Part shown: positions 1-11,088 of the stretch, in pieces
Position numbering within the stretch: position 1 is the stretch's first letter
How the letters are laid out: each line of letters opens with the position of its first letter
NCBI GenBank assembly: GCA_038245295.1
Contig: JBBRSP010000026.1
Span: forward strand, 1-64,000
Direction of reading: 5' to 3'
Origin: Candidatus Binatia bacterium
Lineage (GTDB): Bacteria > Desulfobacterota > Binatia > HRBIN30
Length of the DNA stretch: 64,000 bases
Position numbers and translations under genes: made by a program
Notes under the pieces: generated by a model
Database searches by the model: none
Told to the model about the DNA's origin: nothing
Seen by the model: only the letters and a program-made list of their open reading frames with translations

Positions 1-147
1 AACTAAAGTGGAGCAACGTCATCCCGGTGAACACCGGGATCTCCCCCTGGTGGAAGCCTCGAAAGCCGGCGAGATACCGGCTTTCGCCGGTATGACGGAT
101 AGGTCTGCTCGGTTTCAAATATGCTTTCCGAGTAAATCGACACACTC
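1..147 (+). mobile_element. Hairpin-targeting MITE, copy A (5' end cut by the window edge)
   Basis: Colinear without gaps with 9346-9492. Contains the inverted CGTC-REP pair at 17-43 and 71-97 and ends in TCGACACACTC (137-147), matching the right terminal repeat TCGACAGTCTC. Confidence 0.75.
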
Positions 148-200
148 GAAAGCCGGGATCTCCTCGAGTGGAGGGCCAGAAATGCTGGGGAGATACCGCC
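148..200 (+). repeat. Internal fragment of a host MITE copy, interrupted on both sides
   Basis: GAAAGCCGGGATCTCCTCGAGTGGAGGGCCAGAAATGCTGGGGAGATACCG matches the middle of copies B and C. It begins at the GAAA loop of hairpin 1 and stops just before the loop of hairpin 2. Confidence 0.75.
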
Positions 201-370
201 CATACTGTCGATAAACTGAAATGAAGCAACGTCATCCCGGCGAAAGCCGGGATCTCCTCGAGTGGAAGGCCACAAATGCTGGGGAGATATCGGCTTTCGC
301 AGGTATGACGGGGATCCGCCGGGGTGACGGCACCTCCACAAACTCTGCTCCAACGAGAATCGACAGTCTC
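201..370 (+). mobile_element. Hairpin-targeting MITE, copy B
   Basis: Ends are CATACTGTCGA and TCGACAGTCTC. 205-310 matches 9337-9442 at 102/106 nt; the 3' 60 nt differ. Confidence 0.8.
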
Positions 371-7795: not shown

Positions 7796-8992
7796 TCAGC
7801 CGCAGGCTCCCGACGCCTTCAACGCCGCGATCTCTGCCTCGCTTTTGCCGAGCTCGCGCAGACACTCGTCGGTATGGCCGGCCAACTCGGCCGGCGGGAT
7901 GCGCAGCGAGCCAGGTGTTTCACTCATCTGGAAGACGACGTTCATTGTCTTGAAACGGCCGTGTTTCGGATGCGCCCAGTCGGCCACCGAACCGTTCACC
8001 TTCAACTGCGGCATCGCGAACATCTCTTTGAGGTTATTGACTCGACACGACGGCACATCGGCCTTGGCGCATAAGTCGATCCAGTGGTCGCAGGTATTGG
8101 TCAGGAAGATGTCGTGGAGGATGCCGACGATTTCGTCGCGGTTCTGACAGCGGACCGTGTTGCTGACGAACTTGGGATTCTCTTGAAGATCGGCGCGCCC
8201 GAGGGCTTCGACCAGCCGCTTGTAAAAGGCGTTGGTCAGGCAGGCGACGATGAAATACCCATCGCTCGCCTGGAACGCCTGGTAGGGGACCAGATCGGGA
8301 TGGCCGTTACCGAACTTGGCGTAGTCGAAACCGGTGTTGAGGTGCGCCGTCGAGATGTCGGCAAGCAGCGAGATGACGGCATCGAGCATTGCCAGATCGA
8401 TGCGTTGGCCGACGCCCGTCTTCTCTCTGTGCAGCAGCGCCAGCGCGATTGCATAGGCGGCGTAGATGCCTGATGAAATGTCGGCCACCGGACCCGCCGC
8501 CTTCGCCGGCGGACCGCCAGGAAAACCCGTCAGCCCCATCATGCCGCCGGTCGCCTGAAGGATGAGATCCATCCCAGGGCTCTGCTGCATCGGGCCGGTC
8601 TTGCCGAAGGCGGTGATCGCCGCATAGATAATCTTCGGGTTGACCTTCCTGAGATCGTCGTAGCCAAGCCCGAGCCGATCGGTGACGCCGGGGCGGAAGT
8701 TCTCGACGACGACATCGGCGTGGCGCGCGATGTCGCGAATCAGGGCCGCGCCGTCCGGGTTCTTGATGTCGACACCGACGGAGCGCTTGTTACGGTTCAG
8801 CCCCCAGAAATTGTAACTACCGACCTTCGGATCGGCGCCGCGGGCGTAGCGGATGCTGTCGCCGCGACCAGGCTTTTCGATCTTCCAAACATCGGCACCC
8901 ATGTCGCCGAGAAGCGTGGTGCACCACGGGCCGGCCGCCTGATGGCTCAGATCAATGACGCGCACACCCTTGAGCGGGCCTTTGTTTTCCAC
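7796..8992 (-). CDS. CaiB/BaiF family III CoA-transferase
   Basis: PLKGVRVIDLS, AGPWC..LLGDMGADV, NRNKRS and VENFRPG motifs; GTG start at 8992 with AAGGAG RBS. Confidence 0.93.
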   Translation of the reverse strand: MENKGPLKGVRVIDLSHQAAGPWCTTLLGDMGADVWKIEKPGRGDSIRYARGADPKVGSYNFWGLNRNKRSVGVDIKNPDGAALIRDIARHADVVVENFRPGVTDRLGLGYDDLRKVNPKIIYAAITAFGKTGPMQQSPGMDLILQATGGMMGLTGFPGGPPAKAAGPVADISSGIYAAYAIALALLHREKTGVGQRIDLAMLDAVISLLADISTAHLNTGFDYAKFGNGHPDLVPYQAFQASDGYFIVACLTNAFYKRLVEALGRADLQENPKFVSNTVRCQNRDEIVGILHDIFLTNTCDHWIDLCAKADVPSCRVNNLKEMFAMPQLKVNGSVADWAHPKHGRFKTMNVVFQMSETPGSLRIPPAELAGHTDECLRELGKSEAEIAALKASGACG

Positions 8993-9038
8993 AGTGACTC
9001 CTTCTCGATTATGGCAGGTCCGGCGGCGATACGAACCC

Positions 9039-9060
9039 CATCCCGGCGAAGGCCGGGATG
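9039..9060. repeat. Intact REP-type hairpin related to the CGTC family
   Basis: CATCCCGGC-GAAG-GCCGGGATG; same stem as the hairpins carried inside the MITE. Confidence 0.7.
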
Positions 9061-9116
9061 CACTGATGGAACGCAAACGCACCCTGCGCGATTAGAGGCT
9101 GTACCGGGTGCCCGCC

Positions 9117-9319
9117 CAATGTCGTTAAGGTAAGCGTTCTCATCCTGGGTTCTCGATTCTGGGTTCGCGGTTCTCGATGCGTTCGCGCTCCTTGCGAGGA
9201 CCGCCGGGGCACCGGCTTCAACGCATCGAGAATGGAGGACCCAGAGCTCAGAATCGAGAATGAGAACTTGCCGGCTTTCATCAGAACTACTCGAGTCGAT
9301 CGCCAACTTAACGACACTG
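9117..9319. mobile_element. IS4-like MITE (203 bp) containing a heptamer-repeat palindrome
   Basis: Terminal inverted repeats CAATGTCGTTAAG / CAGTGTCGTTAAG (12/13). Flanking 10-bp direct repeats GGTGCCCGCC (9107-9116) and GGTTCCGGCC (9320-9329). Internal 48-bp inverted arms at 9136-9183 and 9220-9267. Confidence 0.65.
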
Positions 9320-9332
9320 GGTTCCGGCCTTC

Positions 9333-9492
9333 GAGCCTGTCGATAAACTGAAATGAAGCAACGTCATCCCGGCGAAAGCCGGGATCTCCTCGAGTGGAAG
9401 GCCAAAAATGCTGGGGAGATACCGGCGTTCGCCGGTATGACGGAAGTGTTTGCGCAGTTCCAGACGATGAATCGGAGAAAGTCGACAGTCTC
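9333..9492 (+). mobile_element. Hairpin-targeting MITE, copy C (complete, 160 bp)
   Basis: Terminal inverted repeats GAGCCTGTCGA / TCGACAGTCTC (10/11). 4-bp target duplication CTTC at 9329-9332 and 9493-9496. Internal inverted CGTC-REP pair at 9362-9388 and 9416-9442. Confidence 0.85.
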
Positions 9493-9522
9493 CTTCGCCG
9501 GAACGACGCTTACCGTCCGCAT

Positions 9523-11088
9523 TCATGCGAACTGTTCCTTGAGGACCGCCGTTTGCACCTTGTTGGCGGCATTGCGCGGCAGCGCTTCGACGAATTCGAC
9601 ACGCCGCGGCTTCTTGAAACCAGCCAGCCGCTTGGCGGCGAACTCGAGCAGCACTTCACGATCGAGCGCCGCACCGCTCTGAACCACGATGACGGCGGTG
9701 ACCTGCTCGCCCCACTTGGGATGCGGCGTGCCGATCACGGCGACGTCGGCAACAGAGGGATGAGTGCGCAGTACATCTTCCACTTCGACCGGCGATACGT
9801 TTTCACCACCAGTGATGATGAGATTCTTCACACGCCCCGTGATGTAGAAGAACCCCTCGGCGTCGCGGCGGCCAAGGTCGCCGGTATGCAGCCAACCATC
9901 GCGGATCGTCGCCGCGGTGGCAGCCTTGTCGCGGTAGTAGCCGGCCATCACGGTGGGGCCGCCAATCACCAACTCGCCGTCCGCGTCGACATCGGCGAGT
10001 TGTCCGTCGGAACGGCGCACCGCGACAATGACGTGCGGGTTCATGCAACCGACGGTACCCGGATGCTCGAAGACGCGGCCGGCGCGCGCCATAGCGACGC
10101 CGTTAGTCGACTCCGACTGTCCATACGCTTCAATGATCTCCGCGCCGCCGAAGATGTCGGCCAGCGCACGCTTCGCTTCCATTGGTGTCGCGGCGCCGCC
10201 GACGGAAACTTTCTGCACACAGTTGCGCACAAGGTCGGGAACTCGACGCAGGTTGACGACATCGAAGACCATGCCGGCGATGAGGGGCAGATCGGTGATG
10301 CGGTAGCGTTCGGTTGCTTCCAGGAGGCTCGCCGTATTGAAACCGTCGAACAGCACCGTGGTCGAGCCAAGCAGCAGGCGGCAGAGGAGATGCGAGACGA
10401 ACACCGGTGTATGGGTCAGTGGGCTGATCGATGCACCGACACTGGCCGCCGAATCGCCGCGCGCCGTTGCACAGGCAAGGGCGGACCACAGCAGATTGCG
10501 ATGGCGGATCATCACGCCCTTCGGAGCACCCGTCGTACCGGAGGTGTACGCGAGCACCGCAAGGTCATCGGGGTGCGGAAGAGCCGATCGACCGACGGAA
10601 GCTTTGGCCGCGTGGCGCGCGCGACGGGCGATGCGCGGCGTCAGGGGAAACGTTTGCTTCACCACATAGAGCGGCAGGCCGAGACGCTTCGTCGCTTCGG
10701 CCGCGAGTCCTTCTCGCGGCTCGTCGCAAACCATGGCGACGGCGCGCGAGTGACGCAACAGATTGGTCAGCTCGTCGACGGTGGAGCGAATCGAGATCGG
10801 CACCGTCACCGCGCCGACCTCCCAGAGAGCGTAACTCGTCGCCACGATGGCCGGGGAGTTGGCGATGCTGACGGCGACATGGTCACGCCGCCCGATCCCA
10901 CGGGCCGCTAGCCAAGCCGCAGCGGCATCCACCTCGCGCGCCAGTTCTCCAAAGGTGTGGCGACGATCGGCAAAGATCAGCCCGCCCTCATTGCCGCGCC
11001 GCAGCCCTTGTTGATGCAAAAACGCAGCGGACGTCGGCAGTAGAAGCGACTCCGGCGTTGGTGAAGGCGATGCAACACGACGCGACAT
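9523..11088 (-). CDS. Acyl-CoA synthetase (long-chain fatty acid/MenE-like)
   Basis: YTSGTTGAPKG, YGQSE, WLHTGDLG and LPRNAANKV motifs. Confidence 0.92.
   Translation of the reverse strand: MSRRVASPSPTPESLLLPTSAAFLHQQGLRRGNEGGLIFADRRHTFGELAREVDAAAAWLAARGIGRRDHVAVSIANSPAIVATSYALWEVGAVTVPISIRSTVDELTNLLRHSRAVAMVCDEPREGLAAEATKRLGLPLYVVKQTFPLTPRIARRARHAAKASVGRSALPHPDDLAVLAYTSGTTGAPKGVMIRHRNLLWSALACATARGDSAASVGASISPLTHTPVFVSHLLCRLLLGSTTVLFDGFNTASLLEATERYRITDLPLIAGMVFDVVNLRRVPDLVRNCVQKVSVGGAATPMEAKRALADIFGGAEIIEAYGQSESTNGVAMARAGRVFEHPGTVGCMNPHVIVAVRRSDGQLADVDADGELVIGGPTVMAGYYRDKAATAATIRDGWLHTGDLGRRDAEGFFYITGRVKNLIITGGENVSPVEVEDVLRTHPSVADVAVIGTPHPKWGEQVTAVIVVQSGAALDREVLLEFAAKRLAGFKKPRRVEFVEALPRNAANKVQTAVLKEQFA

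Follow-up and report, generated by a model that had tools for sequence, protein, structure and literature searches.

The window analysed here, a stretch of 64,000 nucleotides (G000:C26:1-64000) from genome G000, an assembly of 129 contigs that is 96.6% complete, carries a gene-less 160-bp element between two co-directional minus-strand genes, which encode an AMP-binding enzyme and a family III CoA-transferase. The true start of the CoA-transferase gene is probably later, because its Pfam match begins at residue 37, and the long open reading frames across the element are taken as antisense shadows. The features of the locus, together with those of a further family locus within the window, are the following.

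1..370 (no strand): further locus of the family; the contig start truncates a subfamily B copy (T:A hairpin), which is nested in a hairpin and adjoined by a decayed subfamily A copy
7796..9082 (minus): downstream gene, CoA-transferase family III (Pfam match)
9036..9059 (plus): degenerate partner hairpin ATCCCGGC-GAAG-GCCGGGAT with a decayed tag, seen in the sequence
9117..9319 (no strand): second, unrelated miniature element of 203 bp with ends CA(A/G)TGTCGTTAAG, placed at the foot of the hairpin targeted by the 160-bp element, with flanks that agree at 8/10 bases
9321..9328 (minus): tail-side stem arm of the split target REP, GTTCCGGC; the CCA tail is next on the minus strand
9329..9332 (plus): left CTTC of the 4-bp target duplication, equal to the loop of the target hairpin (printed sequence)
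9333..9492 (no strand): non-autonomous 160-bp MITE of subfamily A, of which 19 copies share both end types
9333..9343 (plus): left terminal inverted repeat, corresponding in most autonomous relatives to the end downstream of the transposase gene
9362..9389 (plus): carried hairpin REP1; 8-bp stem 9366-9373/9378-9385, loop GAAA, C:G closing pair; an often-used self-target in subfamily A
9415..9442 (minus): carried hairpin REP2; stem 9419-9426/9431-9438; seldom used as a target in subfamily A
9482..9492 (minus): right terminal inverted repeat; 17/19 bases equal the upstream end of the autonomous elements L051 and L058, read inward
9493..9496 (plus): right CTTC of the 4-bp target duplication (printed sequence)
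9497..9508 (minus): head-side stem arm GCCGGAAC (9497-9504) and CGTC tag (GACG, 9505-9508) of the split target REP
9523..11088 (minus): upstream gene, AMP-binding (acyl-CoA ligase-like) enzyme (Pfam match)

The first-pass annotation had described an insertion into a hairpin loop with CTTC duplicated, and the order arm-CTTC-element-CTTC-arm-GACG was confirmed at 9321-9508, the CGTC tag of the split target lying 15 bp past the stop codon of the upstream gene. The 11-bp terminal inverted repeats it had named are present but imperfect, agreeing at 10/11 positions (GAGCCTGTCGA vs. GAGACTGTCGA). Two hairpins of the same REP family do lie inside the element in inverted orientation, as claimed; their 28-nt arms are 89% complementary with the CGTC tags outside, and the whole element has a predicted fold of -40.3 kcal/mol (z -6.2 against 200 shuffles). 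The hairpin at 9036..9059, a presumed partner of the target REP, likely once formed a head-to-head dimer with it.

The neighbouring 203-bp element belongs to a type with 10 end pairs in the genome, most of them with a 9-10 bp duplication. CGTC hairpins are carried by 8/10 of these, and the usual insertion site is another GC-rich hairpin family. This type may be IS4-like. Its interior (9140-9280) contains short degenerate repeats, namely ATCGAGAATG twice and TTCTCGAT-like units.

Loop placement and self-nesting across the genome

A sensitive end scan of G000 identified 326 family ends at 139 loci, and 79 copies of 150-166 bp possess both ends. There are four main end types, with GAGAC as the commonest start in all four; they combine in pairs as subfamilies A and B. 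The 79 copies comprise 19 pure subfamily A copies (mean identity, 0.918), 33 subfamily B copies (0.929), 15+3 mosaics of the main ends, and 9 others. Pairwise likeness among copies ranges from 79 to 99%, so there is no sign of current activity.

The placement of the family ends in loops is far beyond chance. The stem arm CC(G/C)GC lies exactly 4 nt outside 289 of the 326 ends, the weaker of which are partly seeded by hairpin context, compared with counts of 2-10 at offsets 0-3 and 6-8 and a random background of 6%; offset 5 gives 182 matches because the one-mismatch pattern overlaps itself. The arm is also present for 121 of the 142 strict, context-free end matches. Among the 99 outermost end pairs, an exact 4-bp duplication was found in 40 (10,000 permutations: mean, 8.1; maximum, 20) and a duplication within one mismatch in 61 (mean, 25.1; maximum, 41). 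The flanks are inverted rather than duplicated in 23/99 loci within one mismatch (14 exact), and 15/99 pairs fit neither class with one mismatch allowed. The limited share of exact duplications and the pairs in neither class count against the reading of loop insertion with duplication.

Insertion of the family into its own carried hairpins, which had been expected, is real. An inner copy lies between two outer ends at 16 loci, and 11 of these give back a parent of 159-162 bp after removal of the inner copy plus 4 bp, with an inner 4-bp duplication within one mismatch in 10/11; the remaining 5/16 are rearranged. The 11 balanced nests are in effect internal pairs of filled and empty sites within one genome. 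Tandem arrays of a 45-bp unit (an element end plus half a hairpin) were also seen at C9:157621-158167, C10:212928-213177, and C11:67310-67400, and are likely collapsed repeated nests.

A 150-bp host element with ends TAGTGGGTCC(A/G)TTTGA bears a similar CGTC hairpin dimer (e.g., C5:63982-64131, C7:26076-26225, and C13:33673-33822). Three of its copies are empty, and two occur as 150+4 bp around an insert. The other forms are seven copies that lost approximately 50 bp from loop to loop, one solo end, and one 66-bp form without the dimer (C38:18278-18343), which may represent either the ancestral state without insert or the outcome of a deletion between 2-bp microhomologies. The approximately 50 bp between the two loops was therefore removed in 7/9 complete insertions into this host, and a single family thus both duplicates a loop and replaces the spacer between two hairpins. 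The 4-bp loop duplication claimed in the first pass holds for the exact duplications and for 10/11 balanced nests, but not for the inverted flanks or for most insertions into the 150-bp host.

These products would be explained by an attack of each transposon end, on its own strand, at the 5' side of a hairpin tip. Both tips taken from one hairpin would give a duplicated loop. Tips taken from the two hairpins of a dimer would remove the spacer in one step, as modelled for IS1272 in the accessible text of PMC5678879, or the same product might arise in two steps, by two insertions and recombination; an unresolved double insertion was seen at none of the 139 loci. Recombination between nested direct repeats would yield the mosaic, solo-end, and 45-bp tandem forms. 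Mosaic copies were not significantly enriched among non-duplicated flanks (5/11 vs. 6/28; p 0.23), a result compatible with both the one-step and the two-step origin of the deletions.

Autonomous IS1182 relatives

The ends of the 160-bp element are common to full-length IS1182 elements of related genomes, in agreement with the earlier assignment to a non-autonomous element with IS1182-type ends. In L051 (G001:C570:5-1762), two family ends enclose 1758 bp with a 544-aa open reading frame, whose protein scores 311.6 bits on the IS1182 model NF033551 (cut-off, 270) and contains PF05598, PF01609, and PF13751; the element adjoins the same kind of hairpin arm as the G000 elements. Relatives of this protein are encoded in 10/52 genomes of the order (E 1e-30 or better). 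Fourteen full-length copies of 1725-1758 bp with ends G(A/G)GACTGTCG were recovered from 6 relatives (8 of them from G013), and the commonest subfamily A ends equal those of L062 over 15 and 18 bases. The end pattern occurs at least once in 49/251 genomes of the class, with counts of 120 in G015, 93 in G037, 25 in G038, and 18 each in G001 and G013. The G000 copies share these terminal repeats, are short, lack a transposase gene, are numerous and dispersed, and are accompanied by 4-bp duplications, as is usual for an IS1182-family MITE.

An exact 4-bp duplication flanks 9/14 full-length copies, mostly at the tips of GC-rich hairpins of other families, and CGTC-type arms adjoin L058 and L061, both at a contig start. 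The 4 bp at the hairpin tip often straddle the stem and a 3- or 5-nt loop, and the enzyme therefore appears to seek hairpin tips in general; the equality of duplication and loop in G000 would follow from the 4-nt loop of the CGTC REP. Miniature elements with the same ends and unrelated, low-complexity palindromic cargo were seen in relatives (L016, L018, L028, L029, and L034), inserted at CGTC or other hairpin tips. In L063 (G006:C59), a full-length IS1182 copy lies within nested miniature elements with the same ends.

The full-length transposase with these ends that had been sought is thus found in relatives (L051 and others) but not in the G000 assembly, where none was recovered among 6 PF13751 hits, 16 NF033551 matches, and an end-pair scan. 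The best G000 match to the L051 protein reaches 29% only. The cognate element may be missing from the assembly, because this consists of 129 contigs and is 96.6% complete. A metagenome scan found 48 relatives, 5 of them at 56-78% identity, and none of the fetched flanks contained both ends; a plasmid search returned distant IS1182-annotated proteins only, at most 35% among the matches listed. The empty sites expected in related genomes did not materialize: the 160-bp query gave only short matches in 9/40 relatives, none of the same genus, and no contigs joined across the element were found in 4 runs, a result that carries no weight. Runs X3 and X4 contain the genome at a small share only and are not informative on habitat.

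G000 also harbors a second family with IS1182-like ends, GAGGCTGTCTCAAAAC, represented by 83 ends and copies of approximately 130 bp (e.g., C5:147597-147726 and C17:102111-102240). It is placed in the loop of a GTAG-tagged hairpin, and its cargo is a third hairpin family, not its own target. The 1454-bp segment C17:102109-103562, considered as a candidate IS, is actually a host gene enclosed by two copies of a different MITE.

Hairpin use, repeat cargo, and competing explanations

The carried hairpins are used unequally as targets. REP1 with a C:G closing pair was entered in 32/64 cases and REP1 with a T:A closing pair in 2/70 (Fisher p 6e-11, with copies that are not independent), and the REP1 insertions fall on 29 distinct loci. 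B-type ends alone gave 4/9 for C-closed and 1/67 for T-closed hairpins (p 0.0005). Age is a confounder, as 22/26 children within subfamily A REP1 are subfamily B; the two subfamilies overlapped, however, because A entered REP2 of B four times. REP2 was used in 1/67 cases in subfamily A and 6/48 in subfamily B. The T:A form is a two-sided change, found as T-GAAA-A in 61 intact copies, and retains its predicted fold (-8.6 vs. -9.8 kcal/mol). T-closed hairpins are avoided but not immune, as CCGGT precedes 8 ends. GCGAAAGC is an unusually stable DNA mini-hairpin. The claim that each insertion delivers two targets is too simple in view of these counts, and the larger subfamily B delivers mostly poor targets, because its T:A REP1 and its REP2 are rarely entered.

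A large share of the REPs of the genome is nonetheless carried as cargo, as had been proposed. The MITE copies contain 181/300 intact Ssn-related-motif matches in G000 (reversed-genome control, 29) and, under a looser pattern, 288/606 hairpin heads; more than half of the hairpin repeats of the genome were likely multiplied in this way. G000 has 173 exact repeat 20-mers, the most among 52 genomes of the order (next, 59), a count that depends on a single genome and on an exact pattern fitted to that genome. In G037, where the MITEs in four loci carry other cargo, there are 72 junctions and 19 intact repeats. These two genomes, G000 and G037, fit a net gain of repeats with REP cargo and a net loss without it. 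G025 and G028 have 59 exact repeats and 19 repeats, respectively, and 0 insertion junctions.

The carried hairpins have the CGTC tag, 8-bp stem, 4-nt loop, and head-to-head arrangement that PMC3733652 gives, in its accessible part, for CGTC-1 REPs. They begin with AT and end with CTC, and the split target begins with G and ends with CCA (CGTC-1 pattern: A, T first and a CCA-like tail). The published degenerate SRM pattern fits each of the two carried hairpins and does not fit the restored target. In the text available of Chenal et al. (PMC11893778), a small GIY-YIG gene flanked by SRMs constitutes the Ssn system, characterized by assignment to CDD cd10448 and single-strand cleavage next to the motif, and mobility of a repeat-ssnA-repeat unit is put forward as a hypothesis only. 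An Ssn-like GIY-YIG gene is found at G000:C22:5435-5722 (95 aa; PF01541, 56.3 bits); the 600 bp to either side of it contain 4 and 2 motif matches, respectively. Its homologues in G025 and G028, at 69-70% identity, are likewise bordered by the repeats, and three others (in G023, in G013, and a second one in G028) are not. Two further GIY-YIG genes of G000, C12:172419-172634 and C43:25299-25514, are flanked by the cargo hairpin family of the ~130-bp MITE.

The first-pass annotation had also suggested that the REPs spread without a RAYT. None of 5 Y1 hits (PF01797) has the motif within 600 bp, four of them lying near a contig end with the flank partly missing, and the two tested Y1 hits score below the NF047646 cut-off; this much agrees with the suggestion, but the Ssn-like GIY-YIG gene is another candidate partner. 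Since the repeats flank that gene and are abundant in G025 without insertions, the MITE is probably a secondary amplifier and is best read as captor and local amplifier of an older repeat.

Several other explanations have to be weighed. Were each insertion to spend one target and yield two usable ones, a chain reaction could account for most of the spread of CGTC REPs in the absence of a dedicated enzyme, and the element-borne share of split hairpin heads (54/182), the 60% of intact motif matches inside the element, and the repeat richness of G000 among the 52 genomes all point that way. We nevertheless regard this as unlikely in view of the uneven use of the hairpins (REP2, 1/67 and 6/48; T:A REP1, 2/70), the repeats with 0 junctions in G025 and G028, both with a repeat-flanked Ssn-like gene, and the presence of the same dimer as cargo in at least two other miniature families. 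It is very improbable that the Ssn-like GIY-YIG nuclease, or some other enzyme specific to the repeats, mobilizes a REPIN-like repeat as the unit of movement, with the IS1182-like ends as passive relics. Such a unit would agree with the motifs on both sides of the C22 gene, with the existence of free head-to-head dimers with a similar spacer, and with the mobility hypothesized in the part of Chenal et al. cited above (PMC11893778), yet the duplicated bases adjoin the IS ends and not the repeats, elements with the same ends and unrelated cargo enter the same loops in other genomes, and autonomous IS1182 copies bear the same 4-bp, tip-centered signature.

A technical origin of the nests and inverted flanks, as assembly artefacts of a repeat-rich metagenome bin or as gene conversion products, is hardly credible. 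The assembly does comprise 129 contigs with repeats at many contig ends, but in the nests copies of two different subfamilies meet precisely at loop positions, the outer duplications of rare 4-mers being intact (GGAG, AAAG, and GAAG), the junction of a REP1 loop with a subfamily B end also occurs as loose contig ends in X1 and X2, the 45-bp step back recurs in X3 from a second study, and the copies differ by 1-21%.

The ends shared with the IS1182 elements of relatives, the loop position, the 4-bp duplications, the self-nesting, and the uneven use of the hairpins are direct observations. We consider it quite probable that the gene-less 160-bp element with IS1182-type ends occupies the 4-nt loops of CGTC REP hairpins, the hairpins of its own copies among them, that an IS1182 transposase which the assembly no longer contains likely mobilized it, and that it likely multiplied its REP pair as cargo. 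A pre-existing REP dimer would have been captured by the element, the older partner of the REP would likely be the Ssn-like nuclease gene, and the element would be a secondary, lineage-specific amplifier instead of the origin of the repeats. A bolder proposal is possible but remains tentative: the larger subfamily may have evolved an escape, in which the change from C:G to T:A at the REP1 closing pair sheds most self-insertion, keeps the hairpin, and still permits invasion of the older form; one tip-seeking chemistry might unite duplicating and hairpin-deleting IS1182 elements; and MITE cargo could be a second, DDE-driven engine of CGTC REPs beside the Ssn nuclease.

Comparison with known systems

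In REPIN/RAYT systems, inverted REP pairs multiply within the genome as non-autonomous units, and in this respect the carried pair resembles them. The moving unit here, by contrast, has the ends and duplications of a DDE transposon, and the repeats do not flank any Y1 gene. The individual repeats share the 8-bp stem, 4-nt loop, CGTC tag, and head-to-head dimers with the CGTC-1 REPs and SRMs as far as these are described in the accessible text (PMC3733652 and PMC11893778).

The staphylococcal IS1272/TnSha1 elements share IS1182-family ends and a transposase (here in relatives), hairpin targets, and deletion of target DNA, and a tandem duplication of the left end has been reported there, comparable to the 45-bp arrays found here. 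In the accessible parts of PMC5678879 and PMC4923244, the hairpin target of IS1272 is deleted, and duplication of the loop is found only as one of the alternatives in a model (pathway c of Wan et al.). The first-pass annotation had treated loop duplication by IS1182 members as established; hairpin targeting is indeed in print, but in these sources the duplication is only modelled. In those descriptions, IS1272 insertions lack both a duplication and a target consensus; here, in contrast, most events duplicate 4 bp at the tip, one repeat family is targeted, and the element is gene-less, carries its target, and is self-nested. Target deletion of the IS1272 type without duplication is absent at 9333-9492 and in most copies, but 7/9 complete insertions into the 150-bp host show the loop-to-loop loss.

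MITEPye1 of Paracoccus yeei is, like the present element, a gene-less, intergenic MITE (159 bp) with IS1182-like terminal repeats, 4-bp direct repeats, and a long stem-loop fold (PMC11578231). It differs in occurring in 1-3 copies per chromosome, and the accessible text of that paper reports no hairpin target, carried REP, or nesting. Insertion at a fixed REP point is shared with ISPsy8, ISRm22, ISPpu9/10, ISPa11, and ISRm19, and insertion at the REP symmetry axis with a short direct repeat is shared with ISPsy8 and ISRm22; hybrids formed by recombination or adjacent deletion have been discussed for such elements, which, in the part of PMC1525189 available, belong to IS families other than IS1182, are autonomous, and carry no REP cargo.

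Hairpin targeting by IS1182 members, a 159-bp IS1182-type MITE with 4-bp repeats, REP-axis insertion by other ISs, and the CGTC/SRM repeats are thus already in print in the sources named. We found no description of a REP-carrying, self-nesting IS1182 MITE in the open-access literature, including the accessible text of PMC3184786. New here are the closing-pair and position bias in self-targeting, the contrast between duplication and replacement within a single host dimer, and a competing driver in the form of the Ssn-like gene. How CGTC-tagged REPs multiply has been a standing question since 2013, according to the accessible text of PMC3733652, and hitch-hiking in a DDE-type miniature element, with approximately 60% of the intact motif copies aboard, offers one concrete route. 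Moreover, more than 100 natural insertion events define the target of an IS1182 transposase at the single-base level (tip position, closing pair, and context), and in the accessible parts of the IS1272 papers that targeting mechanism was only modelled. Each of the parts is known, and the gain is therefore a testable system and not a new class of element.
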